Assembly (NCBI GenBank): GCA_035573895.1
Contig: DATLZR010000015.1
Coordinates: forward strand, 7,387-71,386
Direction of reading: 5' to 3'
Length of the DNA stretch: 64,000 nt
Source of the DNA: Blastocatellia bacterium
GTDB lineage: Bacteria; Acidobacteriota; Blastocatellia; HR10
The notes under the pieces were generated by a model, which was not told the DNA's origin, ran no database searches, and saw only the letters and a program-made list of their open reading frames with translations. Shown here one piece after another: positions 1-15,483 of the stretch (position 1 is its first letter; each line of letters begins with the position of its first letter). The position numbers and the translations under genes were made by a program.

Positions 1-1066
1 CCACCGCTCCTCCCCTGGCGAGAACCCGCTCGATAGCCCGGTCGAGAAGATTGGGAGTGGCTTCGAGCGCGCCCCCGCAGTAGAGGCATGCATGAGTGGC
101 CGCGTCCAGATAGAGGGCGCCACAGGCCGTACAGACGGAGCCCTGAAGCATCGAGTTCCTCGCATACAGGAGCCGCCAGACGCGCCCCTCCGAGACCGCC
201 TGAATCGTATCCGCGGCACCGACGGTCGCATTCCCTCCTTTATGGGCCGTCGTCACCAGTTTCTCAACAAGCTCCAGCTCTCTGTTTCGCTCAGTCGCCG
301 CCTCGATTTTCTGCACCTCGGCCAGAATGTCAGATACGGACGCGGTGATGGGAACCGAGATCGTCCCCACGACGCGCGACCGCAACGCCTTCGGCAGGAC
401 TCGCTGAAGCTCGCTCACGGCTTCAACCGTCCCGCCCAGCACTAACCGATCAAAGTGATACTGAGCCGCCAGCTCGGTCAGTTTTTCGGCGACGTTCTTG
501 ACATGACCGTGAACGTGTTGATCGTGGTGCCGCTGCAGGTTCTTCTGCGACCAGAGCCGATCGGTGCTCGTGGTCACAGTTCGTCGGGGCACCTCGTCGA
601 AGACCTGATGATGTTCCTCGACGTCGCCGAGGTAGACGGTGAACAATCGCGCCCGTTCCTTATCCACCAGCACGACGCCATAGCGCTCATACTCATCGAG
701 CGCCTCGACCAGCGGCTGATAGTACGGCGCAGGAGCGAACCGCGCCACCGAGGGAAGAATGATGGGAAGATCACGATCCCACCAGAATCCCCGACGGGAA
801 TCGCTGAAGATGACCAGACTCTTCTTCCGGGGGGTGTAGTCCCGGATAAAACGGAGAACCTTTTCCCGATTCGCTTCGAATTCCGAGCGAAGATGGTTGG
901 AGATGTCCCGTTCAACCTCTTTGAGGAGCTGAGTCGCCGTTCGCTCAAATCCTCGATTGAGATTACCCGGCTTGGACTGATCCACATCAAGATAGAGGCT
1001 GAGGACGTGACCCTCGCCCTCAGGTCCGTAACGCTGGAGCATTTCCAGATCCCTGTATGAAACCAT
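1..1066 (-). CDS. baeRF/eRF1-Pelota-like protein with C-terminal CxxC..CxxC zinc ribbon. The 3' end runs off the window start.
   Basis: I translated the minus strand myself from the ATG at 1066 (MVSYRDLEMLQRYGPEGEGHVLSLYLDV...). The ORF track omits it because it is open at the edge. The central segment YGVVLVDKERARLFTVYLG resembles the eRF1/Pelota domain-2 start. The C-terminus has CTACGALYLDAATHACLYCGG. The + strand ORF 455..1060 and the - strand ORF 574..1110 are its shadows. Confidence 0.5.
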   Translation of the reverse strand, partial: MVSYRDLEMLQRYGPEGEGHVLSLYLDVDQSKPGNLNRGFERTATQLLKEVERDISNHLRSEFEANREKVLRFIRDYTPRKKSLVIFSDSRRGFWWDRDLPIILPSVARFAPAPYYQPLVEALDEYERYGVVLVDKERARLFTVYLGDVEEHHQVFDEVPRRTVTTSTDRLWSQKNLQRHHDQHVHGHVKNVAEKLTELAAQYHFDRLVLGGTVEAVSELQRVLPKALRSRVVGTISVPITASVSDILAEVQKIEAATERNRELELVEKLVTTAHKGGNATVGAADTIQAVSEGRVWRLLYARNSMLQGSVCTACGALYLDAATHACLYCGGALEATPNLLDRAIERVLARGGAV

Positions 1067-1140
1067 TGTTCCCTCCTAACGTCGGTTGCTCTGGATTCCG
1101 GAGGAGACACCGATCGGCCCGCTGGGCCGACAGGTGGTCC

Positions 1141-2679
1141 TTACTCCGATTTTTCCTTCAGCCGCTCCACCGTGAACCGCCAGTACGTCACCGGGGTGCC
1201 CGGTGGGATGCCCGCTTTGCGCAACGCCAGCTCGATCTGCCTCTCCACCGTCGTAATTCCCGGCAGATCGGGCAGGAGCAATCCCCTCCGTCCGTCGGCG
1301 CTCTCCACAATCAATCCGTAACGCGAAGGATCGAGATCGTTCGGGCCCGCGACCCGCTCCGGCGGGGACAGCACATCAACCGAAAAGACCAACCGATCGA
1401 GTTCATCAGCAGTCACCGGAGGAAATCGAGGGTCAGCCGTTGCCGCCGACACGGCATTGTGAATGACTTCCTCGACAATGGTCTTGCGCGTCGGGTGAAT
1501 CGTTCCCACGCAGCCGCGCAATTCACCGTCGCGGGTCTTGATGCTGACGAAAACGCCCGACGGGCGCGCCCATCGTCCGCTGATGGGCTCCGGAGCCGGC
1601 ATGATCTTTCCCTGAGAGAGATAATAGGCGACCGATTGCCGGGCCATAGCAGGCAGATCAATCTCCGGTTGGGCTGCTGCCGCCGGTTCAGGAGCGGGAT
1701 CCAGGCCCGGCGACGCCGCCACGTCGCTTCGTTCCGTTCGATCGCCCTCGGCGGACGGCTCCTTTGATCCATTGTCCGAAGAAGAATAGTCGGCCAGTAC
1801 GGCCGCCATGTAGCCGACGCCGAACGGACCCTCGTAGGAAAAGACCTCCGTGCGATGGAGTTTCCGGCCGATGGCGCCATAGGCGATGAGCAGCGAACGA
1901 TAGATGTCCTCGCCGGCTTCCTCCCGCAGATCGGGATCAATGGCGAGAATCTTCTCGAAATCACCTTCTCGAAGAGCGGCGACGATGGCCTCGTCATAGA
2001 GATGGGCGCGTTCGCTGAACCCTGCGGGTGCATCCGGCTTCAGCCGATGACTCATGTCTCCACTGGCACAAATGGCCAGGCGGAGGTTCAATTGTGCAGC
2101 GGCATCAGCAATCGCCTCGCCAAAGCGGACATGCTCCCTCGCGGGCAAAAAGGAGAGTCCCACCACAGCTACCTTCGATGTCCACCCCGCTTTCACCAGA
2201 TAGTAGAGTGGAACCATCGTGCCGTGATCGAGTCGCCGACCGGCGGGAATAAGCCAGAGGGGAATGTTTCGCTCCTGGCACAGAGCGGCCAGCCGAGACA
2301 GCAAGACGAGGTCATTGCTGATGGTGAACTCCACCTCCGGGGCGCCGAAATCCCAGAAGTCGCCTCGCAATCGGGGTCCACTATAGGCGCTGAATGAACG
2401 AGGATCCAGCGGTGCATGAGGACTGATGATGACGACCGTATCCGGTCCAGAAGCTACCAGCCGCTGCATCATCCGCTCAACGCCGCGGACCGTCGCCATG
2501 CACTCGGCCAACCGGTCGCCTCCGATCTCCGGGACGATAATTGGCGGATGCGGCGAGACACCGGCAAATACGACAGCCGATCTCATAGGCCTGACCTCCT
2601 TGTTGAATCTCGGCGAGCGGCCTGCACTCGAACCCCTGCACCAGCGTCGTCGGCCCCCTCCGGCGACGACCGTCCTCAT
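1141..2679 (-). CDS. Fusion protein: N-terminal LigB/Memo-like class III extradiol dioxygenase fold plus C-terminal AMMECR1 domain
   Basis: 512 aa. The N-terminal half has LigB-family motifs (VVIISPHAPL, LDHGTMVPLYYL, ICASGDMSHRL). The C-terminal part has AMMECR1 hallmarks (SGVFVSIKTRDGELRGCVGTI, DPRFPPV). Its start overlaps the ftsH stop by 4 nt. Confidence 0.65.
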   Translation of the reverse strand: MRTVVAGGGRRRWCRGSSAGRSPRFNKEVRPMRSAVVFAGVSPHPPIIVPEIGGDRLAECMATVRGVERMMQRLVASGPDTVVIISPHAPLDPRSFSAYSGPRLRGDFWDFGAPEVEFTISNDLVLLSRLAALCQERNIPLWLIPAGRRLDHGTMVPLYYLVKAGWTSKVAVVGLSFLPAREHVRFGEAIADAAAQLNLRLAICASGDMSHRLKPDAPAGFSERAHLYDEAIVAALREGDFEKILAIDPDLREEAGEDIYRSLLIAYGAIGRKLHRTEVFSYEGPFGVGYMAAVLADYSSSDNGSKEPSAEGDRTERSDVAASPGLDPAPEPAAAAQPEIDLPAMARQSVAYYLSQGKIMPAPEPISGRWARPSGVFVSIKTRDGELRGCVGTIHPTRKTIVEEVIHNAVSAATADPRFPPVTADELDRLVFSVDVLSPPERVAGPNDLDPSRYGLIVESADGRRGLLLPDLPGITTVERQIELALRKAGIPPGTPVTYWRFTVERLKEKSE

Positions 2680-4553
2680 CCCGCCGGGGGTTGTACATCC
2701 CTTTCCGAGGCGGATCCGGTCGGTTCTTCCGCCTCCTGCAGCAGTCGCATGAGTTCCGCCCGATCCAGCGTCTCCCGAACCATCAATTCCTGAGCAATTC
2801 GCACCAACGCTTTTTCTCGCTGCACAAGCAGCGACCGCGCTCGATCATACGCCTGGGCGATGAGCCGGTTCACTTCGTCGTCAATGATCTGGGCCGTCTC
2901 CTCGCTGAAATCTCGCTCCTCGGCCGCCGGCAGAGGACCGCGCAGAAACTGGCCGTCGAGCGGGCGTCCGAACGTTCGCGGTCCCAAGCGCGTGCTCATG
3001 CCGAAACGCGTCACCATCTGCCGGGCGATTTCGGTTGCCTGCTCCAAATCGTTATGCACCCCGGTGGAGGACACCCCGAAGATCAGTTCCTCCGCCGCTC
3101 GCCCGCCCAGAAGCACGGCCAGGCGATCCTCGAGTTCCGACTTGGTGTAGAGATAGCGGTCGTCCGCCGGCAGTTGCAACGTAACGCCGAGCGCTCCAAT
3201 CGAGCGAGGGATGATCGTCACCTTGTGAACCGGATCGGCATGAGGCAGCGACAGCGCCACGAGCGCATGACCAACTTCATGATAAGCGACGCGTTCTTTG
3301 ATGGCCGGAGACATGGCACGATTCTTTTTCTCCAACCCGAGCATGACGCGGTCAATCGCCTCCTCAAAGTCGCGCATCTCGACCGCCTCCGAGCCTCGTC
3401 GGGCGGCCAGAAGCGCCGCCTCATTCACGATATTGGCCAGATCGGCACCCACCATCCCCGGCGTCCGCGCCGCCAGCACGCGGAAATCCACATCGGCCCC
3501 CACGCGAACCTTTCGGGCATGGACCTTGAGGATCTCCTCACGACCGGTTATATCCGGGCGATCTACGATGATGCGGCGATCAAATCGCCCGGCCCGGAGC
3601 AAGGCCGGATCCAGGATCTCCGGTCGGTTGGTCGCCGCCATGATGATGACGCCCTTGGAGGAATCGAATCCGTCCATTTCGACGAGGAGCTGATTGAGCG
3701 TCTGTTCCCGCTCATCATGCGCTCCGATGAAGGCTCCCCCGACGGCCCGCATCTTGCCGATCGCATCGAGTTCATCAATGAAGACGATGCAGGGGGCCTT
3801 TTTCTTGGCCTGCTCGAAGAGGTCGCGGACGCGCGCCGCCCCCACGCCGACGAACATCTCGACGAACTCCGATCCCGAAATCGAGAAAAACGGAACGCCC
3901 GCTTCCCCGGCCACCGCCCGCGCGAGCAGGGTCTTCCCCGTTCCCGGAGGTCCGACGAGCAGAACGCCTTTGGGGATGCGCCCGCCCAGGCGCTGGTACC
4001 GAGCGGGACTCTTCAAAAAATCCACGATCTCGACGAGTTCAGCCTTGGCCTCATCCACGCCGGCGACGTCGGCGAATGTGACGCGCTGGTCGCTGCTGGT
4101 GTCGTAAATTTTCGCCTTGCTGCGGCCAAAGGTCAGGACGCTACTGCCCCCCTGCGCCAGCCGCCTCATGCCATAGCCCCAAATCGCTCCCAAAATCAGC
4201 AGCGGCAGCACCCAGTAGAGGAAGAACTGCTCCAGCCAGGAAGTGCGCTCAATCACCCCGGAGAATTTCACCTGCCGTTCCTGCAGTTCCTTCAGCAATG
4301 ACGTCTCTTCTATGCCGGGAAGTCGAGTGGCGACCACCAGCCGATTCCCCTCCCGGAGGCGGGCGCGAATCTCACTCTCGCCGATCCAGACCTCCGCGAC
4401 TTTGCCGCTCCGAAGGTGATCGAGAAGTTCACTGTAGGGAATCGGGTGAGGACGAGGAAAGGGGCTGAACTGCTGGAGCGAGATCAGCAGTCCCACCGTG
4501 AGGATGAGATAAAAGATGTTGAAGACCCACTTTTGTCGCGTGGTCTTATCCAT
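2676..4553 (-). CDS. ftsH: ATP-dependent zinc metalloprotease FtsH
   Basis: 625 aa. N-terminal TM helices, AAA+ Walker [31 protein letters not shown] zinc motif. Confidence 0.95.
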
Positions 4554-4715
4554 CGTTCGATTCCGACACCGAGATCGCGCCCGACAAGCACTCCCCCGGA
4601 GTCAAGGACTGCACGCCGTCACTCGAGCTAATGCGTTGCCCGAAAGCCGGTCGGAAAAGCCGCCCCGCGAGGATTCCTTTCAGCGCCACTGCCGGCCTCT
4701 CACGCGGCGTTCACC

Positions 4716-5012
4716 TTAGGCCGCCTTGCGAAACTCCGGCTGACCGAACAGCTCTTCTTCGGTGATCTCGCGTCCGGTCTCTAAATCGGGATCGGCGCTA
4801 TCAACGAGGAAATAGCGTCGGTTGCCGGGAATGCGCCGTTCGATCCATTGGCGATTGAGAACGGCCGGGACGTAAACGATCAGATCGGGATTCGAATTTT
4901 TACTCCGTCGGACTCCCAGCTCGCTATCCCAGACGGCGATATAGGTGTGGCCTCCTCGCTCGAGGGTCAGGATGTCACCGTTGGCCCGTCGCAGGATGTA
5001 ATAGGTTGCCAT
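4716..5012 (-). CDS. Hypothetical small protein (99 aa) downstream of htrA
   Basis: Internal ATG at 5012 preceded by GGAGGGGG RBS (MATYYILRRANGDILTLERGGHTYIAVWD...). The longer track ORF 4716..5201 has a low-complexity N-extension overlapping htrA. No recognisable domain. Confidence 0.4.
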   Translation of the reverse strand: MATYYILRRANGDILTLERGGHTYIAVWDSELGVRRSKNSNPDLIVYVPAVLNRQWIERRIPGNRRYFLVDSADPDLETGREITEEELFGQPEFRKAA

Positions 5013-5175
5013 CGCTTGCCCCCTCCATCGCCTGAGATAATTATGGCCATCACCGAATCGAGACTTCGCGCGGTGACGACGATCACCCGCCCGCTGTCCA
5101 ACCTCAAATCCTCGTGAGAGAGGAACCCGAGGCGTCTCGGGCTCCTCCTCCCTGATACGCGAAGCGACATATCGC

Positions 5176-6792
5176 TCAACCGCGCGGGGCGATGTCCACA
5201 TAGCCAGTGCTGCCTGAGCGCGAGAAGTAGACGCGCAGCAGGGCCCGCCGTCGCCCGACCCGCGAGACAGCCTGACGAAACGCTTCCACCGATGTCACCG
5301 GCTGCCGATTCACTTCAATGATCACGTCGCCGGGTTGCAATCCGACTTCGGCCGCGGGGCTGTCCGGGTCAATATCGCTGATGATCACACCGGTGATGCT
5401 TCGAGGAATATCAAAGCGATTGCGCAGCGAGGGCGTCAGCTCATCCACGGCGATTCCACTGAGCGTATTCCCGCTGTCATTGGATTCCGGCATGCGGCTC
5501 ACCCGCTCCGCCGGTCGCTCACCAAGCTCCACCGTCACTTTTTGTTCGCGCCCGTTACGGATGAGCGTGAGCGTCACCCGCGTTCCCGGCGGCGTCAATC
5601 CCACCATGTTTTTCAGGTGATCGGCGTCGTTGACGCGCTGTCCGTTGAACTCAATGATGACATCGCCGTTGCGGATTCCCGCGCGATCGGCCGGTCCATC
5701 CGGCACGACATTTCCCACGAGTGCTCCCCGGCGATCCTTCAACTCGAATTGCTCGACCATCCCTTCGGTCAGGTTCTGGATCTCCACTCCGAGATACCCG
5801 CGAACGACCTTGCCATACTTGAGAATGCGGTCCATCACCTCGCGGGCCATATTGATGGGAATGGCGAACCCGACGCCGGCATTGGCCTGTATGCCGCGCG
5901 TGAAGATGGCCGTGTTAATGCCGATCAACTCGCCCCGCATGTTGACCAGAGCGCCACCGGAATTCCCCGGATTGATCGCCGCGTCCGTCTGAATGAAATC
6001 GCCATACTCGGCAATTCCCAGGTTTCCGCGACCGGTCGCGCTAATGATGCCAAAGGTGACCGTTTGCTGTAACTCCCGCCGAAACGGATTCCCGATGGCG
6101 ATGACGAAATCGCCCACCTGCACCCGCGACGAATCACCCAGGGTGATGGCCGGAAGCTTCTGGGCGTCAATCTTCAGCACAGCGACATCACTTTGAGGAT
6201 CCGTTCCGACGACGCGCGCTTTGAAAACACGCTGATCGGCCAGCCGCACGGTGACCTCTGTCGCTCCCTCGACCACGTGATTGTTGGTCAGAATGTAGCC
6301 ATCCGGACTCACGATCACGCCCGATCCGAGCCCTTCCTGCGTATATTCGCGGGGTTGACGGGGAGTGCCGAAAAATCGGCGGAAGAAGGGATCGTCGAAA
6401 AAGAAATCAATCCCTTGAGATCGCACCCTTGACTTGGTCTCGATGCTGACGACGGAGTCGCGCACAGCCCGGACGACCGGGCCGAGACCTTCGGTGAGCG
6501 ATACGTTGCCCATACTGGAGCCGGAGGCCACGGGCGCACCGCTGGCGAGATAAATGGGCACGCGGGAATCGTTGCGAGGAAATGGCGCCCAGGACGTCCA
6601 CGCCGTGAGGATCGAGCCCATCACCGCACCAATGAGAAGCAGGAGAGTGACTCCCGCCCCCAGGCGCACGCGCCGATCTCTCAGCCACCATCCGGGGGAC
6701 CACCCCCGGCGACTCGAGGCAACCGTGGACCGGTCGAACTCGGCCGCAGTCGGTTGTAGCGAAGCGTCGGGTTTGACATTCATCGTTTCCAT
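5176..6792 (-). CDS. htrA: HtrA/DegP-family periplasmic serine protease with two PDZ domains
   Basis: 538 aa. TM/signal region, trypsin-like motifs GYILTNNHVVEGA and GNSGGAL, two C-terminal PDZ-like segments. Confidence 0.9.
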   Translation of the reverse strand: METMNVKPDASLQPTAAEFDRSTVASSRRGWSPGWWLRDRRVRLGAGVTLLLLIGAVMGSILTAWTSWAPFPRNDSRVPIYLASGAPVASGSSMGNVSLTEGLGPVVRAVRDSVVSIETKSRVRSQGIDFFFDDPFFRRFFGTPRQPREYTQEGLGSGVIVSPDGYILTNNHVVEGATEVTVRLADQRVFKARVVGTDPQSDVAVLKIDAQKLPAITLGDSSRVQVGDFVIAIGNPFRRELQQTVTFGIISATGRGNLGIAEYGDFIQTDAAINPGNSGGALVNMRGELIGINTAIFTRGIQANAGVGFAIPINMAREVMDRILKYGKVVRGYLGVEIQNLTEGMVEQFELKDRRGALVGNVVPDGPADRAGIRNGDVIIEFNGQRVNDADHLKNMVGLTPPGTRVTLTLIRNGREQKVTVELGERPAERVSRMPESNDSGNTLSGIAVDELTPSLRNRFDIPRSITGVIISDIDPDSPAAEVGLQPGDVIIEVNRQPVTSVEAFRQAVSRVGRRRALLRVYFSRSGSTGYVDIAPRG

Positions 6793-6892
6793 GTTTCACT
6801 CCTTCCGTCATCGAAGAATTTCGGCCAGCTCCTCCGATGCGATTGGCTGCCGGCCCTTGATGTTATGACGTTCTCCCGCACACCCGATCGGG

Positions 6893-9541
6893 CTATTCGC
6901 TGGCGACCGGAGCGGCGGCCCGCTCAGTCGAAAAGACCAATCTTCCGCCGTCATAATCCACCGTGACACGGGAATTATCGCGCACCTCTCCCTGCAAGAC
7001 CAGCTTGGCCAGAGGATTCTCCAGCTCGCGTTGAATGACCCGCTTGAGCGGACGGGCCCCGAAGACCGGATCGTACCCGACGCGCGCCAGCCACTCCCGG
7101 GCGGCATCGGTCACGTGGAGCGCGATCTGCCGGTCACTCAGCCGCTGCTGCAACCGGCGAAGCTGAATCTCGACGATCTCTTTGAGATGGTCCTCGGTCA
7201 ACGCATGAAAGACGACGATCTCGTCCACCCGGTTGAGGAACTCGGGCCGGAAGGTTCGCCGAAGTTCCGCCAGAACCGTCTCCTTCATCCGCTCGTACCG
7301 ATCGCCGCTGGCGGCGCCACGATATTCGAGGATGAGATTGCTGCCGATGTTGGAGGTCATGATGATGATGGTGTTCTTGAAATCAACCGTGCGACCGTGA
7401 CTGTCGGTCAGCCGCCCATCGTCGAGAATTTGCAAGAGCAGATTGAAGACATCCCAGTGGGCCTTCTCGATCTCGTCAAAGAGGACGACCGAATAGGGAC
7501 GCCGTCGAACCGCTTCGGTCAATTGCCCGCCCTCCTCGTAGCCGACGTAGCCGGGCGGCGCTCCGATCAGGCGAGCGACCGAATGCTTCTCCATGTACTC
7601 GGACATGTCAATGCGAATGAGCGCCCGTTCATCATCGAAGAGCGACTCGGCCAGCGCGCGGGCCAGCTCCGTTTTCCCCACGCCGGTGGGACCGAGGAAA
7701 ATGAAACTGCCGATGGGCCGATTGGGATCTTTCAATCCGGCGCGCGCCCGACGCACGGCCTCGGCCACGGCGCTCACGGCTTCGTCCTGGCCGACGATCC
7801 GGCGATGCAGTTCCTCCTCCAGGCGGAGCAACTTTTGAATCTCCCCTTCGAGGAGCTTGCTCACCGGGATGCCCGTCCAGCGACTGACGACCTCGGCGAT
7901 GTCTTCCTCATCCACTTCTTCCTTGAGTAATCGCGTTCCCCCGCGCTGCTCGACCAGCTCGGTGAGGGCTTTCTCGCTCTCTCGAATCTTCCTCTCCAGC
8001 TCGACGAGTCGTCCGTACTTCAATTCGGCCGCCCGATTCAGATCATACGCCCGCTCCGCTTGTTCGATGAGGATCTTCGTCTCCTCGACCTGCTCACGGA
8101 GCTGGCGAAGATCGGCGATGATTTTCTTCTCCTGCTCCCATTGAGTTTTGAGCCCATCGGCCTGGACGCGCAATTCGGCCAGCTCTTCTTCGAGCTTGCG
8201 CAACCGTTCCCGCGAAGCGGCATCCGTCTCCCGCTTCAATCCCTCGCGCTCGATTTCCAGTTGCATGATGCGCCGGAGGATCTCGTCCAGCTCCGACGGC
8301 ATCGAGTCAATTTCCGTACGCAGCCGCGCGGCCGCTTCATCCACCAGATCAATGGCTTTATCCGGGAGAAAACGATCGGAGATATAGCGGTTGCTCAGGA
8401 CGGCGGCCGCGACCAGAGCGGAATCCTTGATCCGCACGCCATGATGCACCTCGTAGCGTTCCTTCAGGCCGCGAAGGATCGAGATCGTATCTTCAACGCT
8501 CGGCTCCCCCACGAGGATGGGTTGGAAGCGTCGCTCTAGCGCGGCATCCTTCTCGATGTACTTGCGGTACTCGTCCAGAGTGGTCGCGCCGATGCACCGC
8601 AGCTCGCCGCGCGCCAGCATGGGCTTGAGGAGATTTCCCGCATCCATCGTGGCTCCTTCCGCCCGACCGGCTCCGACGACCGTGTGCAACTCGTCAATGA
8701 ACAGGATGATCTCTCCCTGCGACTCCTGAACCTCGCGCAAAACCGCCTTGAGCCGTTCCTCAAATTCGCCGCGATACTTGGCCCCGGCGATCAATGCGCC
8801 CATGTCGAGCTGGACGACCCGCTTGTGTTTGAGCCCTTCGGGGACATCGCCTCGAATGATGCGCTGAGCCAGTCCTTCAACAATCGCCGTTTTCCCCACG
8901 CCGGGCTCACCGATGAGGACGGGATTGTTTTTCGTCCGGCGGGAGAGAACCTGCATCACCCGACGAATCTCCTCGTCCCGTCCGATGACAGGATCGAGCT
9001 TCCCCTGACCGGCTAACTGCGTGAGATCGCGCCCGTAGCGTTCGAGCGCCTGATAGGTCGCTTCGGGCGTGGGACTGGTGACGCGCTGCGTCCCGCGAAT
9101 TTGCAGCAGGGCTTTCATCAAACGATCGCGCGTCAGACCCGCCTCAGCGAGAATACGGCCCGCCGCTGTCGCTCGCCCCTCCTCCACCATGGCGAGGAGA
9201 ACATGCTCGACGCTGATGTACTCGTCGCGGAACTTCTTCGCCTCATCCTCGGCCGCCACAAACAACCGATTGAGTCGCCCCGTGAGATAAACCTGATCCG
9301 GTCCGGCGGCCGGTCCGCTCACTTTCGGCCAGCGGGCCAGTTCCTGCTCCAACCGGGTGATCACCTGAGCCGGATCAACGCCCGCCCGTTGCAGGATCGT
9401 GGGAGCCAGACCACCTTCCTGCTGCAGCAACGCGAGCAACAGATGCTCCACGTCAATGTGCTGATGGCTATAGCGAGCGGCGATCGCTTGAGCCGCACGA
9501 ATTCCATCCTGAAGCTTTTCCGTCATTCGGTTGATGTCCAT
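6893..9541 (-). CDS. clpB: Chaperone ClpB (Hsp100 disaggregase)
   Basis: 882 aa. Clp N-domain, two AAA+ modules ([15 protein letters not shown] and [15 protein letters not shown]), long coiled-coil M-domain. Confidence 0.95.
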
Positions 9542-9544
9542 AGG

Positions 9545-10483
9545 TTACTTCACCCCATTTGATCGCGGATTGAACTTCGATTCCCGAGCCAACTGCTCGA
9601 AGAGTTTCCGTTCGGCGGCCGTTGGACGCGGCGGGACGACGATCTTCACTTCGACGTATTGGTCCCCCCGGCCTCCCCGACGACGCGTCAGACCCTGACC
9701 GCGCAGCCGGAGCTTTTGCCCCGTTTGCGCTCCCGGAGGCAGACTTACCTCCGCCATTCCATCGAGCGTCGGCACGAGAATTTTCGCTCCCAGGACAGCC
9801 TCCCAGGGCGTCACCGGCACCTCCGTGTACAGATCATCGCCGGAGACTTTGAAGATGGGATGCGGCTGGAGTTTCACCCGGAGATAAAGATCGCCCGCCA
9901 TACCTCCGGCCTGTCCGCCCTGGCCGGCAAGCCGGATGACAGAACCATCGCGGACGCCCGCCGGAATCTTCACTTCCAGCGACTTTCCCGTCGGGAGCGT
10001 TAAGCGTCGCGTCGTTCCCCGATGAGCTTCTTCGAGCGAGAGTTCAATCTCCATCTCCACGTCAGCAGCGCGACTTCCCCAGCGCGTTGTTGTTGACGGC
10101 CCCGCGTGGCGTCCTGCCGGGCGACCTCGCAACCCACCAAAGAGCGTCTCAAAGAAATCGCTGAAGCCGCCGGGCATACCGGTGAAGAAATCGAAATCGC
10201 CAAAATCGAGGCGAATCCGCTCCCACCCCGGCGGAGGCGTGAACTCGCTGCCCGCTTTCCAGTTGGGGCCGAGGCGATCATAAAGCTCCCGCTTTTTCGG
10301 ATCGCCGAGGACCTCGTAGGCTTCGTTGATCTCCTTGAACTTCTCCTCCGCCGCCTTGTCACCGGGGTTAACGTCCGGATGGTACTTCCGCGCGAGCCGA
10401 CGGTAAGCCGCTTTGATCTCTTCCTGGCTGGCTGTCCGTGGCACGCCGAGGATTTGATAGTAGTCTTTGTAGGTGACGGCCAT
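9545..10483 (-). CDS. cbpA: J-domain co-chaperone, CbpA-type (DnaJ homolog lacking the Cys-rich zinc finger)
   Basis: 312 aa. N-terminal J domain (DYYQILGV...KYHPD), then Gly/Phe-like linker and two C-terminal beta domains. No CxxCxGxG repeats. Sits 4 nt upstream of clpB. Confidence 0.75.
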
Positions 10484-10571
10484 CGCCTTCGATCACCCAG
10501 CACACCGTGGTTGAGAAAGTCAACTTGTCAACAACGCCCCTCCACGCACAGGGAGAGGATCTGGCCCTTCA

Positions 10572-11054
10572 TTATCCTCGCCAGCTCAGCATCTGGATCA
10601 ACTCCGAACGAGCCAGATTCTCCTCCCGGCGAGCGGCACTCAGCTCCGCCACCGCCCGCTGGTACTGTTCCCGCAACTTCTCCGGGACACGAGGTCCGGC
10701 ATCCCGCGCCTGACAGTTCAAATCGCGGACCCGTTCGAGCGCCTCCCGGACCCGCTCGCGAGCCGCCAACAACCGCCGCATGAGACGGGCTAACACCTCC
10801 TGCCGCGTCTCGTAGCGGTAGGCAGCCTCTTCCTCCTCTTCCTCATACCCCTCTTCAGGAAGGTAGGCGGACTCCGCAGCCACTTCCTGAGCAACGGCCT
10901 GAGGCTCCTCCTCGACGTACTCCTCGACGGCTTCCTCGCCGTAGTAGTCGGCGTCGTCGTAGGGTTCGAGCGCTTCCGTGTAATCCTCGAGCGGCGCCGG
11001 TTCGACCGGTGCGACTTCCGGTTCCTCAACCTGATTTTTCTTTCGTCGTGGCAT
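10572..11054 (-). CDS. Acidic Glu/Tyr-rich protein with basic coiled-coil C-terminus (hypothetical), between dnaK and cbpA
   Basis: I chose the internal ATG at 11054 (MPRRKKNQVEEPEV...), preceded by a GGAGGG RBS. The longer track ORF would overlap the dnaK 3' end. No GrpE-like beta domain. Confidence 0.45.
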   Translation of the reverse strand: MPRRKKNQVEEPEVAPVEPAPLEDYTEALEPYDDADYYGEEAVEEYVEEEPQAVAQEVAAESAYLPEEGYEEEEEEAAYRYETRQEVLARLMRRLLAARERVREALERVRDLNCQARDAGPRVPEKLREQYQRAVAELSAARREENLARSELIQMLSWRG

Positions 11055-11085
11055 TCGTGATTTTCCCTCCTCTCTTGTTGAAATT

Positions 11086-12975
11086 TCAGTTGCTCGGCTT
11101 AAATTCGGCATCAATGACATCATCGGACGATGTGCTGGAACCGGACGATCCCGAAGCTCCCGCACCTGCCGATGTCGCTTGACTATAGGCAGCCGCTGCA
11201 ATCGCATGAGCGACCTGCTGGAGGTCGGACGTCAGTTGACGAATTCGCTCAATTCCCGCCTCCTCTTTGATGGCCTGACGAATCTGGCTGATGAGATCTT
11301 CGGCGCGAGCGCGTTCGTGAACCGGAACCTTGTCGCCCAGGTCGCGCAAAGTCCGCTCGACCTGATAGGCCAGACTGTCGGCTTGATTGCGCGCCTCGAC
11401 CAGCTCGCGCTTCCTCTTGTCCTCTTCGGCATACATCTGAGCGTCCCGGATCATGCGCTCGATCTCTTCCTTGGAGAGCTGGGTCGAGCCGGTGATGGTG
11501 ATCTTTTGCTCCCGACCCGTCGCTTTATCCCGCGCGGTCACATTGAGAATTCCGTTGGCATCAATGTCGAAAGTCACCTCGATCTGAGGGATGCCGCGAG
11601 GAGCCGGAGCGATTCCCTCCAGCCGGAACCGACCGAGCGTGCGATTGTCCCGAGCCATCTCGCGCTCTCCCTGAAGAACGTGGATGTCCACGGCCGTTTG
11701 ATTGTCCTCAGCAGTGGTGAAGATCTCCGTGCGACGGACGGGAATCGTCGTGTTCCGCTCGATGATGCGGGTCATCACACCACCGAGGGTCTCAACGCCG
11801 AGACTGAGCGGCGTCACGTCGAGCAGCAAGACTTCCTTCACCTCTCCGGCCAGGACGCCCGCCTGAATCGCTGCGCCAACAGCGACCACCTCATCGGGAT
11901 TGACCGATTGATTCGGCTCCTTGCCCAGCAGCCGACGGACGAGTTGCTGGACGGCGGGCATGCGGGTCGCTCCTCCGACGAGGATCACCTCGTCAATCTG
12001 ATTCTCGGACAATTTCGCATCGGCCAGGGCTTGCTTGACCGGTCCCACGCATCGCTCGACGAGATCGGCCGTGAGCTGTTCGAATTTCGAGCGCGTCAGC
12101 TTCATCTCCAGGTGCTTCGGTCCGTACGCATCGGCCGTGATGAAGGGAAGACTGATGGTCGTCTCCATCACCGACGACAGCTCGATCTTCGCTTTCTCCG
12201 CCGCTTCGGTCAGCCGCTGCAGCGCCTGGCGATCCTTGCGCAGATCAATGCCGTGCTCGCGCAAAAATTCTTCGGCCATCCAGTCAACGATCCGCTTGTC
12301 AAAATCGTCCCCGCCAAGATGCGTATCGCCGCTGGTGGCCTTCACCTCGAACACCCCATCTCCCACCTCCAGGATGGAGACATCGAAGGTTCCGCCTCCC
12401 AGATCGAAGACGAGGATCGTCTCGTTCTTCTTCTTGTCCAGTCCATAGGCCAATGCCGCGGCCGTCGGTTCGTTGATGATTCGCAGCACATTCAGACCAG
12501 CGATCTTGCCCGCATCGCGCGTGGCTGAGCGCTGGGCATCATTGAAATAGGCCGGCACGGTGATGACGGCATCGGTGACCTTCTCGCCGAGGTAGCGCGA
12601 CGCCTCATCGGCCAGTTTCCGCAAGACCATGGCGGAAATCTCCTCGGGGGCGTAGAGCTTGCCCATCACCTCAAACCGAACAGCATCGTTCGGCCCGGGA
12701 ACGACCTTGTAGGGGACGTTCCGAATCTCGCTGGTGACCTCGGTGTAGCGTCGCCCGATGAACCGTTTCACCGAATAGAGGGTGTTCTCCGGGTTCAAGA
12801 TCGCCTGACGCTTGGCGAGTTGCCCGACCAACCGCTCGCCCGTCTTGGTGAAGGCGACGACCGATGGCGTCGTCCGCCCCCCCTCGCTGTTGACGATCAC
12901 GGTCGGTTTTCCTCCCTCCATGATCGCCACCACGGAGTTTGTCGTTCCTAGATCAATGCCAATTGCCTTCGCCAT
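11086..12975 (-). CDS. dnaK: Molecular chaperone DnaK (Hsp70)
   Basis: 629 aa. [27 protein letters not shown], typical Hsp70 substrate-binding and lid regions. GAGGAGG RBS. Confidence 0.97.
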
Positions 12976-13024
12976 CGTGGTTCCTCCTCACTGAGGTTGA
13001 TCTCCAAGGCCCTGACCGGAAGCC

Positions 13025-13267
13025 TCACGTCGCCCCTCGCGTCGAACGCGACTTCCGGCTCACCGGCTTCTCACTCGCGGGCCTCTCATAGGGAATTCTG
13101 TCGTGAATGAGTTCCTTGAAGGCTTGATTTATCGCCCAGGAAACTCCCGGAGCATCCTGGTGCCGCACCAACTGCTTCGCTCGCTTGGAAACGAGCGTGC
13201 AGATTAAATAGCGGCTGTCCATTTTCGCAATAGCCTCCTCGACGAGCTGTTCTCTCGTGTCAGCCAT
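13025..13267 (-). CDS. rpoZ: DNA-directed RNA polymerase omega subunit-like protein
   Basis: 80 aa. KMDSRYLICTLVSKRAKQL matches the RpoZ core (xxNRFxLVxxAAKRARQL). Strong RBS AGGAGGAG. Confidence 0.55.
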   Translation of the reverse strand: MADTREQLVEEAIAKMDSRYLICTLVSKRAKQLVRHQDAPGVSWAINQAFKELIHDRIPYERPASEKPVSRKSRSTRGAT

Positions 13268-13336
13268 AACTCACTCCTCCTACTTTCGTCCTCCGACTCG
13301 GTTATATCCCCGCGCCTTGCAGGCCACCCTGAGCCA

Positions 13337-13343
13337 TTATACA
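13337..13343 (-). promoter_or_regulatory. Consensus TATAAT (TGTATAAT) at the hsp20 stop codon: possible internal promoter for rpoZ-dnaK
   Basis: The minus strand reads CATGTATAATGG, overlapping the hsp20 TAA stop. A perfect -10 hexamer in a 65% GC background. The -35 candidate is weak (TTCGGA). Confidence 0.25.
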
Positions 13344-13780
13344 TGATTCCCCTCCCCAGTCCGAACCGGAATACGACGGCGTCGCTTGGGCACCCGCAAA
13401 AGCAAAATGCCATCGTTCAGCTCCGCGCTGATCCGGGTGGGATCAACATCTTCGGGAAGCAGAAAGGTCCGAGAAAAATCCCCATACGGCCATTCAATGT
13501 GACGCAAGCGCGCCTTCTGCCATGGCCCCACCAGACGGCGGCCGTCAATGGTTAACTTCCTCCCTTCAACCTTAACCTGAAGGGATTCCCGGTCAACTCC
13601 GGGAAGGTCAACCATAACGGCCATCTCCTCGTCCCCAATGAAGATATTGGCAGGAGGGGAAAATCCTGCAGTATCCGACTGCACCCGGCGCTGTGACACG
13701 CCGGCGAACCACTGATCAGTCCTCACAAGCCGTACGCTTGCGAGATCCTCGACCGGATGAATGCTCTGAACTTTGACCAT
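13337..13780 (-). CDS. Hsp20/alpha-crystallin family small heat shock protein
   Basis: 147 aa. Alpha-crystallin domain pattern (MVDLPGVDRESLQVKVEGRKLTIDG...AELNDGILLLRVPK). Confidence 0.85.
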   Translation of the reverse strand: MVKVQSIHPVEDLASVRLVRTDQWFAGVSQRRVQSDTAGFSPPANIFIGDEEMAVMVDLPGVDRESLQVKVEGRKLTIDGRRLVGPWQKARLRHIEWPYGDFSRTFLLPEDVDPTRISAELNDGILLLRVPKRRRRIPVRTGEGNHV

Positions 13781-13851: not shown

Positions 13852-13933
13852 TATGAGGACGAAAATTTTCATCCCTCGAAGCCCAAACCAATGGAAGCTC
13901 TCCGATAAATAATGAAGCATTGCTCCGACTAAA

Positions 13934-13954
13934 CTTGACAAAAAGAGACTCACA
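13934..13954 (+). promoter_or_regulatory. HAIR-like operator (CTTGACA-N7-ACTCACA) overlapping the hspR promoter
   Basis: Matches CTTGAGT-N7-ACTCAAG at 10/14 positions. Near-identical to the inverted copy at 13833..13851 (TTGACAAAA.G.GACTCA shared). The TTGACA serves as a -35, with a TAGCAT-like -10 downstream. Confidence 0.5.
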
Positions 13955-13997
13955 TATTAGCATAAGGACGGCCTTTCGAGATGGGAGGTGCCAAACA

Positions 13998-14483
13998 ATG
14001 CGGGGCGTGAGCAAAAAGCGAAAAGAAAAAGGATACACCATTAGCGCCGTGGCCGAAGCCTATGGGATTCACCCTCAAACTCTTCGGCTCTACGAACGCC
14101 ATGGCTTGCTCAAGCCGTCCCGCTCCAAAGGGAATACCCGCTACTATTCGGAAGCCGACCTTCGCTCCCTGGAGCTGATCCTGACGTTGACCCGAGATCT
14201 GGGCGTCAATCTCGCGGGTGTGGAAGTGATTCTCAACATGCGGCGGAAGATGGATGCCTTACAGAAGGAAGTGCAGCGATTCATCGAGTACTTACGGGCG
14301 GAGGTTGGAGAACGATTGGCCAATCAGGCAGCCGCCAAGTTTGCGCTTGTCCCCCTGGGACAGACGCCGATAGTCACGATCGAGGAGGACCGGTCGGCGA
14401 TCTTCGAGGGAGATGCGACCCTAGTAGAGGAAGACAATCATACATCGAAAGGAGGTGAGATCTTATTAGCAAAGAAGACATGA
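13998..14483 (+). CDS. hspR: MerR-family heat-shock repressor, HspR-like
   Basis: I chose the ATG at 13998 ([40 protein letters not shown]...), preceded by a GGGAGG RBS. MerR HTH plus coiled-coil. The longer track ORF starts at 13920. The stop overlaps infA. Confidence 0.7.
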
Positions 14484-14689
14484 TTCCTGTTGACGCGACC
14501 GTCATCGAGGCGCTCCCCAATGCGACATTCCGGGTGAAGCTCGATGGCAATGGTCACGAAGTTTTGGCCCATCTCTCGGGCAAAATGAGGAAGAACTACA
14601 TTCGAGTCCTGCCGGGAGACCGAGTTCAAGTAGAGCTGTCACCCTACGATTTAACACGCGGACGGATCACCTACCGGTACAGCAAGTGA
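14480..14689 (+). CDS. infA: Translation initiation factor IF-1
   Basis: 69 aa with an S1-like OB fold ([50 protein letters not shown]). ATGA overlap with the hspR stop. Confidence 0.95.
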
Positions 14690-14691
14690 CG

Positions 14692-15456
14692 TCATTCCCC
14701 TGTGATGAGGTCCCACTGGGCGGCGAGGGCTGTGCAAAATTCGCTAAGCTCGATGTGAAGGACCACGTCGGCGATGTCATCGTAAGGTGTGGGCTCGCGG
14801 TTGACGATGATAATTTTGGCACCTGCCTCTCGCGCCCGGCGGGGAAGTTCCGCTGCTGGATAGACAACCAACGACGAGCCCAGAACCATTAAAAGATCAC
14901 ATTGTGCGACGACCTCGAGAGCGCGAGCCAAGACCTCTCCTGGGAGCGGATCGCCAAACAGCACGAGGTCGGGTTTGAGGATGCCGCCACAGCCACACCG
15001 TGGCGGAAGATCTTTCGGGTTTCCCCGAGCCAGCACCTCAGCCAGACCGATGCTCTGCCCGCAACGCGTGCACCGGCACTGCCGATAGGTTCCATGAAGC
15101 TCAATGACGGAAGTGGAACCGGCCGCCTGGTGAAGCCCGTCAATGTTTTGCGTGATGATCCACCGGAGTTTCCCCGCCTGTTCCAGGCGAACGAGAAGCC
15201 GATGCGTCTCCGTCGGACGGGCCGCTAGCAATGAGGGAAGAAGCGTGAGGGCTGTTTCGTAGAACTTTTTGGGGAACAACCGAAATCCCCAGGCGCTCAG
15301 ACGCGCCATCGCCTGGGGATCACTCCATAATCCCGTCGGGCTCCGGAAGTCGGGAATACCGGCATCGGTACTCACGCCCGCTCCGGTCAGAGCTGCCGTC
15401 CGGGATGACTGCCGGATCAGTTCGATGGCACGAGTGATCGTCATCGGCTCATCCAA
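14692..15456 (-). CDS. cobB: NAD-dependent protein deacylase (Sir2 family)
   Basis: 254 aa. GAGVSTDAGIPDFR, and a Zn-binding CxxC...CxxC pair (CRCTRCG...CGCGG). Confidence 0.9.
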   Translation of the reverse strand: MDEPMTITRAIELIRQSSRTAALTGAGVSTDAGIPDFRSPTGLWSDPQAMARLSAWGFRLFPKKFYETALTLLPSLLAARPTETHRLLVRLEQAGKLRWIITQNIDGLHQAAGSTSVIELHGTYRQCRCTRCGQSIGLAEVLARGNPKDLPPRCGCGGILKPDLVLFGDPLPGEVLARALEVVAQCDLLMVLGSSLVVYPAAELPRRAREAGAKIIIVNREPTPYDDIADVVLHIELSEFCTALAAQWDLITGE

Positions 15457-15483
15457 TGAGTCTCGTCCGCATCGGCCGCAACA

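Follow-up and report, generated by a model that had tools for sequence, protein, structure and literature searches.

A widespread LigB-AMMECR1 fusion protein, placed in a heat-shock gene cluster of one acidobacterial clade and lacking an adjacent radical SAM gene

AMMECR1 and Memo occur as conserved proteins from archaea to humans, each with links to human disease. To our knowledge, neither has an agreed biochemical function, so that clues from genomic context are of some value. Here, we describe a gene that joins a LigB-type domain and an AMMECR1 domain in one polypeptide, located at 1141..2586 on the minus strand of a 64,000-nucleotide (nt) stretch of a Blastocatellia bacterium contig (DATLZR010000015.1), which in its full length is called the window below. 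This kind of protein is already known and widespread, and we claim neither a new architecture nor a new coupling mechanism; as a discovery, the fusion itself is ordinary. As far as we searched, it is the context that is new, comprising (i) loss of linkage to a radical SAM gene, so that the locus represents a phylum-wide (Acidobacteriota) fused protein without such a neighbor; (ii) an apparent relocation, in one clade, to a heat-shock operon beside a Balon-like ribosome factor; and (iii) a Memo score below the family cut-off. This novelty appears modest in scope, being based on synteny within one lineage. Even so, the clade offers an experimental handle on AMMECR1/Memo function.

Fusion of a LigB-type dioxygenase to AMMECR1, together with a radical SAM/dioxygenase neighborhood, was reported by Balaji and Aravind in 2007 (PMC2034487). 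In a set of 5.8 billion proteins, all of the 120 best matches to the window protein had the PF02900 plus PF01871 architecture, many under the names "AmmeMemoRadiSam system protein A" or "A/B." A library clustered at 50% identity yielded 997 clusters at E ≤ 1e-30, and the best 150 representatives were nearly all full-length fusions; no full-length protein among them lacked the two-domain architecture. A scan of one genome per species returned at least 600 species matches (599 confirmed), the best 80 of which span Acidobacteriota, Bacillota, Chloroflexota, Verrucomicrobiota, Armatimonadota, and Actinobacteria. A sequence-only reading of the window had presented the two folds as normally separate partners and their fusion as unusual. 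The first statement is misleading, given how common the fused form is, and the idea of a rare fusion is refuted by the species matches and the 2007 report. One Verrucomicrobiae contig (L066) carries two full-length copies ~3 kb apart, at 10007-11368 (plus strand) and 14114-15475 (minus strand), and no radical SAM open reading frame (ORF) was detected on it.

The closest described systems are the fused A/B proteins, such as that of Desulfofundulus thermosubterraneus DSM 16057 (L074) and those of many Bacillota, Chloroflexota, and Verrucomicrobiota. They resemble the window fusion in architecture and length, are 39-45% identical to it, and share identical invariant residues; proteins of both sorts pass the NCBIfam model TIGR04335 ("AmmeMemoRadiSam system protein A"), on which the C-terminal half of the window protein scores 127 bits (cut-off 99). 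They differ in that the fused A/B proteins adjoin a TIGR04337 gene and pass the Memo (protein B) model TIGR04336 with 38.7 bits, whereas the window fusion does neither. Moreover, they carry the motif AGECG where the window protein has AGEDI, and the latter has heat-shock and baeRF family 10 (baeRF10) genes as neighbors. More specifically, the N-terminal half of the window protein reaches 14.9 bits on TIGR04336, below the cut-off of 26, as do its clade relatives P0003, P0011, and P0019 (11-17 bits); fusions L074, L005, and P0121 pass with 32-39 bits. A Pfam Memo match was sought in the window fusion and not obtained even at E ≤ 1. The sequence-only reading was thus right in its domain calls and in its naming of the neighboring genes.

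Single-domain relatives are more distant. TK2203 of Thermococcus kodakarensis (5hee), a putative class III extradiol dioxygenase, is both the best profile match (E 1e-28) and the best fold match (template modeling [TM] score 0.83) to the N-terminal half, at only ~20% identity. MEMO1/Memo (3bcz, 7l5c; TIGR04336) has the superfamily fold in common with this half (Foldseek E ~1e-8) and is remote from it (TM 0.54-0.56, 12% identity). Judged by these comparisons, the N-terminal half lies closer to the dioxygenase (PCAD/LigB) side of the superfamily than to Memo. The C-terminal half can be aligned over its full length with PH0010 (1vaj), MM0484 (1zq7), ST0229 (1wsc), and human AMMECR1, with which it shares the RGCxG and DxRF motifs (E 3.5e-19, 35% identity, TM 0.77; the E value and TM score are those of the match to 1vaj). 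Those proteins stand alone, and the archaeal genes adjoin NFACT and Mut7-C rather than chaperone genes.

Radical SAM linkage and placement of the fusion

In the fetched loci, ORFs were called and searched with the window proteins and for CX3CX2C motifs; relatives were assigned to Acidobacteriota by the names that the sources give. Outside Acidobacteriota, 32 of 37 loci have a radical SAM ORF of ~330 amino acids (aa) with the motif GCNxxCxFCQNW directly beside the fusion. On TIGR04337 (cut-off 220), a family of radical SAM enzymes related to PFL activase, four of these ORFs reach 291-583 bits; in most phyla, the fusion appears to share an operon with such an enzyme. The ~46 acidobacterial loci, searched with flanks of up to 10 kb in both directions, yielded no radical SAM gene. 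Likewise, a set of non-overlapping ORFs (at least 100 aa each) from the 64-kb window contains no CX3CX2C ORF. Beyond baeRF10, with which the window ends, 10 kb of sequence from six related loci holds PIG-L, CutA1, HU, and HIT genes and no radical SAM gene, and on this basis a partner gene just past the window edge was rejected. The earlier statement that no radical SAM gene lies nearby was thus borne out: the three-gene AmmeMemoRadiSam system, with its adjacent TIGR04337 enzyme, is absent from this locus. At the level of loci, linkage between the fusion and a radical SAM gene appears to be gone across Acidobacteriota.

Two sequence features were considered as marks of radical SAM independence and rejected, namely, failure on TIGR04336 and absence of the Cys from AGECG, a motif that most fusions carry and that is AGEDI in the window clade. 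The Cys does not track radical SAM linkage, because variants without it stay linked: P0139 and P0169 have an adjacent radical SAM gene, and in the variants with AAED and AGQD (L174:827-3339 and L175:8001-10475) such a gene lies immediately downstream. Pyrinomonadaceae fusions keep the Cys and have no adjacent radical SAM gene.

The window belongs to a clade of ~17 loci (the window, L001-L004, L007, L008, L088-L092, L093-L096, and L098-L100) whose fusions are 51-95% identical. The clade gene order is Hsp20/MerR, omega-like, DnaK, acidic protein, DnaJ, ClpB, HtrA, a 98-aa protein, FtsH where present, fusion, and baeRF10. In the window, the heat-shock genes (5176..13780) are all on the minus strand, as are the fusion, ftsH, and baeRF10, and intergenic gaps are at most ~160 nt from DnaJ through baeRF10 and up to ~360 nt from Hsp20 to DnaK. 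The heat-shock gene order is repeated in L002, L003, L007, and L091.

The reading that we favor, and hold to be probable, is that the fusion is a two-domain enzyme of the known fused family that was inserted in a heat-shock cluster and is transcribed with its chaperone and protease genes under stress. Co-transcription would occur upon heat or proteotoxic stress; the LigB-type metal center would perform oxidative chemistry on a substrate, and the AMMECR1 cysteine would perform a transfer or covalent step, the two domains acting consecutively on one substrate. Several points weigh against this reading. Co-transcription is read from strand and spacing. The heat-shock placement is limited to one clade, so that it could be an inherited gene order without functional meaning, and the Pyrinomonadaceae fusion sits by gyrB and dnaA without stress genes. 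The "A/B" label is loose for the window fusion, because its N-terminal half is below the TIGR04336 cut-off, and we know of no demonstrated biochemical activity for any member of this protein family. Finally, the genome could contain a radical SAM partner at another locus.

This last point is the core of the main rival explanation, which we regard as possible and clearly the less likely of the two. It holds that the fusion is a canonical AmmeMemoRadiSam component whose TIGR04337 partner, and maybe a separate Memo, are encoded elsewhere in the genome, that it performs the function it has in other phyla, and that its heat-shock position is a historical accident. Consistent with this explanation, the C-terminal half passes TIGR04335, a TIGR04337-type gene is the direct neighbor in most loci of other phyla, and catalytic residues are identical in radical-SAM-linked and unlinked fusions. 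In addition, the Pyrinomonadaceae copies are likewise unlinked and in an unrelated context, which suggests that the position of the fusion in Acidobacteriota is free to drift. However, the fusion holds its slot, with the small protein or FtsH on one side and baeRF10 on the other, over the ~17 loci of the clade (51-95% identity) while flanking genes vary, and the absence of radical SAM genes from the acidobacterial flanks and from the window ORFs searched also speaks against a canonical component.

Start site, FtsH, and the baeRF10 neighbor

The neighbor upstream of the fusion is ftsH (2676..4553, minus strand; AAA plus M41 protease, Pfam Peptidase_M41 and AAA). The longest minus-strand ORF at 1141..2679 encodes 512 aa, and it overlaps the end of ftsH with the letters ATGA at 2676-2679. 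The sequence-only reading had taken this ATG as the start of a 512-aa protein translationally coupled to ftsH. The letters are present as described, and their use as a start is contradicted by the following observations: (i) a Shine-Dalgarno sequence, AAGGAGG (2595..2601, minus strand), lies 8 nt 5' of a second ATG at 2584-2586, which is 93 nt downstream of the ATGA start; (ii) a start at this ATG 2586 is common to 34 of 34 aligned homologues; (iii) P0001, a homologue 95% identical to the window fusion, is 481 aa in length; and (iv) in L001, the contig of P0001, the frame opened by ATGA closes with TGA after 7 codons, while the Shine-Dalgarno sequence and the downstream ATG are kept. The fusion protein is therefore predicted to comprise 481 aa (stop codon 1141-1143) rather than 512 aa. 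Coupling through ATGA is ruled out by three of these features, namely, the position of the ribosome-binding site, the conserved N-terminus of the homologues, and the TGA that interrupts the frame in L001; the overlap is an ORF-calling artefact, arising because the longest ORF was taken. The 31-codon extension at 2587..2679 (minus strand), including the ATGA overlap, represents a non-coding spacer between the two genes; in L001 and L003, gene callers place 76-90 nt there. Sequence conservation of this spacer was looked for in L003 and L008, and none was found.

Adjacency to ftsH is itself patchy. FtsH adjoins the fusion in the window, L001, L003/L004, L008, L093-L096, L099, and L100, and it is not beside the fusion in six related loci, namely, L002 (79% identical), L007, L088, L089, L091, and L098. 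The specific tie between fusion and ftsH that had been proposed is thus not upheld.

On its other side, the fusion is followed by a baeRF10 gene of the aeRF1/Balon superfamily (1..1066, minus strand; PF18854, Pfam baeRF_family10, E 7.7e-41), from which the window edge removes ~23 C-terminal codons. The match confirms the earlier description of the next gene as eRF1/Pelota-like (aeRF1/Pelota). This protein has in common with Balon, Rv2629, and MSMEG_1130 the aeRF1 superfamily and a stress-operon setting (Hsp20, DnaK, DnaJ), which is the typical home of Balon homologues (PMC10901736). It is nevertheless far under the cut-offs of the corresponding NCBIfam hibernation-factor equivalogs (NF052287-89; 83.8 versus 480, 59.5 versus 320, and 37 versus 330 bits). 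Furthermore, Balon lacks a conserved loop glutamine, whereas family 10 retains the catalytic-loop glutamine (PMC6514570). In our alignment of baeRF10 proteins (A2), two features are invariant: a Gln in DRLWSQKNLQRHH, no more than one residue away from the eRF1 GGQ position, and a zinc ribbon of the form CxxC...CxxC. Judged by these residues, baeRF10 proteins, unlike Balon, might be active peptidyl-tRNA hydrolases.

A reverse search with the baeRF10 alignment retrieved 80 metagenome loci, 8 of them close (59-64% identity) and 72 distant (38-47%). The window arrangement recurs in the 8 close loci wherever upstream sequence exists. Upstream sequence of at least 1.2 kb is available for 47 of the distant loci; the fusion is beside baeRF10 in none of them, and 27 have ClpB, HtrA, DnaJ, or the 98-aa protein immediately upstream. 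Conversely, baeRF10 was found beside the fusion in none of ~80 fusion loci outside the window clade. Given these counts, we reject the idea that the fusion and baeRF10 are obligately paired. Thus, baeRF10 appears to be a regular member of stress clusters, and the fusion, absent from all 47 distant baeRF10 stress loci, appears to be a lineage-specific insertion confined to one clade, as does FtsH where present.

These data also bear on an explanation in which translational coupling ties the fusion to ftsH, and its product cooperates with FtsH and the eRF1-like protein in the quality control of proteins or ribosomes. In its favor are the ATGA itself, the constant position of the fusion beside baeRF10 within its clade, the loop glutamine of family 10 (PMC6514570; alignment A2), and the adjacency of archaeal AMMECR1 genes to NFACT (PMC4075521). 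However, the ATGA start is unused, FtsH is not beside the fusion in six related loci (the 79%-identical L002 among them), and the pairing with baeRF10 is missing outside the clade in both search directions. We consider this explanation unlikely. Of the quality-control role as such, what stands is the synteny within one acidobacterial clade, which points weakly to a possible link; the adjacency of fusion and baeRF10 was not seen elsewhere.

NFACT (NEMF/Tae2) proteins have since been connected with ribosome quality control. A ribosome-linked role for the fusion would be a long shot, and it is kept open because archaeal AMMECR1 genes adjoin NFACT (PMC4075521), which sets AMMECR1 in an RNA and rRNA context, and the window fusion adjoins a glutamine-bearing aeRF1 homologue. 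Earlier predictions for AMMECR1 favor RNA base modification (PMC4075521, PMC2034487); on the strength of these predictions and of the Balon-like neighbor, a nucleotide base in tRNA or rRNA may be named as the leading candidate substrate of our favored two-domain enzyme, with low confidence. A narrower version seems doubtful to us, namely, that the clade enzyme is independent of radical SAM chemistry and under heat stress modifies or repairs a tRNA or rRNA base, or peptidyl-tRNA, on ribosomes occupied by baeRF10. If this were true, then, taken with the archaeal AMMECR1-NFACT neighborhood, it would identify the ribosome as the target long sought for the AMMECR1 family. Memo, for its part, is reportedly linked to nucleotide-base and isoprenoid modification in the work of Burroughs et al. 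(2019) on the PCAD-Memo superfamily.

Domains and conserved residues

In the 512-aa ORF, Pfam places LigB (PF02900, E 2.2e-41) at aa 42-291 and AMMECR1 (PF01871, E 2.7e-43) at aa 345-506, which confirms the earlier claim that both folds occur in one polypeptide; the order and full length are those of the fused family. Numbered from ATG 2586, and with all features on the minus strand, the N-terminal class III extradiol-dioxygenase-like domain (LigB/TK2203-type) spans aa 11-260 (1807..2556; PF02900, E 1.8e-41), and the AMMECR1 domain spans aa 314-475 (1162..1647; PF01871, E 2.5e-43) with the motifs LRGCVG (C359) and DPRF (385-388). An AlphaFold2 model built on a 42-sequence alignment shows two confident domains, with a mean predicted local distance difference test score (pLDDT) of 90.6, joined by a linker at aa 271-305 (1672..1776). 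The linker is disordered (pLDDT <50) and poorly conserved, being gap-rich and of variable length in alignment A1. In Foldseek searches, TK2203 was followed by aminophenol, homoprotocatechuate, and DOPA dioxygenases, and TM scores of 0.72-0.83 against solved dioxygenases place the N-terminal half in the LigB fold.

Alignment A1 comprises the window fusion and 34 homologues, down to 36% identity; the window protein aligns end to end, and 32 columns are invariant among the 35 fusions. Invariant residues include H13, H57, D177, H180, Y251, R357, G358, and C359; D385, R387, and F388 are conserved in at least 90%, and E226 is invariant within the acidobacterial set. Judged by spacing, H13, H57, H180, and E226 may correspond to H12, H61, H195, and E242 of LigB. 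On that assumption, H13, H57, E226, and H180 would form a putative LigB-type 2-His-1-carboxylate metal site and catalytic His. R357, G358, and C359, with D385, R387, and F388, make up the AMMECR1 motifs RGCxG and DxRF, which, as RGChG with its cysteine and DxRa, were put forward as the AMMECR1 active site by Balaji and Aravind (PMC2034487). Thus, both halves of the fusion look catalytically intact.

A catabolic or detoxifying ring-cleavage dioxygenase acting on free catechol or aminophenol, with AMMECR1 as a mere accessory, is very improbable. In its favor, the N-terminal half is nearest in sequence and fold to HpaD, aminophenol, and DOPA dioxygenases and has two conserved His and a Glu that would fit the LigB-type metal triad, plus H180. 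Against it, scores lie far under the cut-off for every characterized equivalog, among them HpaD, MhpB, and gallate dioxygenase (HpaD 39-42 bits versus 316, with 41.6 as the best score), no aromatic-degradation genes occur in the window-clade neighborhoods, and the AMMECR1 partner, with the radical SAM partner in other phyla, is invariant.

Four Blastocatellia/Pyrinomonadaceae genomes encode the LigB and AMMECR1 halves as separate, neighboring genes. The split sites (L014:10823-10888, L044:10802-10810, L047:10835-10846, and L051:6657-6665) show an in-frame stop within the linker and a new ATG 1-20 codons downstream. Within Acidobacteriota, both fusion and fission occur.

Other genes of the heat-shock cluster

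On the minus strand of the window, the cluster comprises Hsp20 (13337-13780), an 80-aa Rpb6/omega-like gene between Hsp20 and DnaK (13025-13267), DnaK (11086-12975), a strongly acidic 160-aa protein without a Pfam match between DnaK and the DnaJ-like gene (10572-11054), DnaJ-like (9545-10483), ClpB (6893-9541), HtrA (5176-6792), and the conserved 98-aa protein, also without a Pfam match (4716-5012). DnaK and ClpB were identified by phmmer to Pfam-annotated genes of related loci rather than by a direct Pfam scan, and the 98-aa protein by phmmer matches in the corresponding slot of both related and distant loci; Hsp20, the omega-like gene, DnaJ-like, and HtrA were assigned by ORF and Pfam, and the acidic protein by ORF. 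A similar-sized gene without a Pfam match occupies the slot of the acidic protein in L002, L003, L007, and L091.

Scans for CIRCE and HAIR heat-shock operators at the cluster gave no matches above chance. A terminator scan found sites no more numerous than in shuffled sequence and is therefore uninformative on the limits of the operon. Upstream of Hsp20, a consensus scan marked TTGACA-17-TATTCT on the minus strand (13851-13823) as promoter-like. A regulator of the MerR family (13920-14483, plus strand; Pfam MerR_1, E 2e-18) is encoded divergently, with counterparts at the equivalent place in L089 and L091.

In the window clade, the 98-aa protein is encoded downstream of HtrA and upstream of FtsH or the fusion; in many distant soil-metagenome loci (L107, L111, L114, L116, L122, L126, L129, L130, L136, and L138), its place is between ClpB and baeRF10. 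To judge from this distribution, it may be a regular partner of baeRF10. A second baeRF10 context was seen in ~10 other distant loci (L118, L119, L123, L142, L144, L146, L147 [300-7053], L149, L162, and L166). There, baeRF10 is flanked on its upstream side by a cyclic-nucleotide (cNMP)-binding thioredoxin-reductase-like gene, thioredoxin 2, and PsiE, and on its downstream side by one or two phosphoglycerate kinase-universal stress protein (PGK-Usp) fusions of 545-580 aa.

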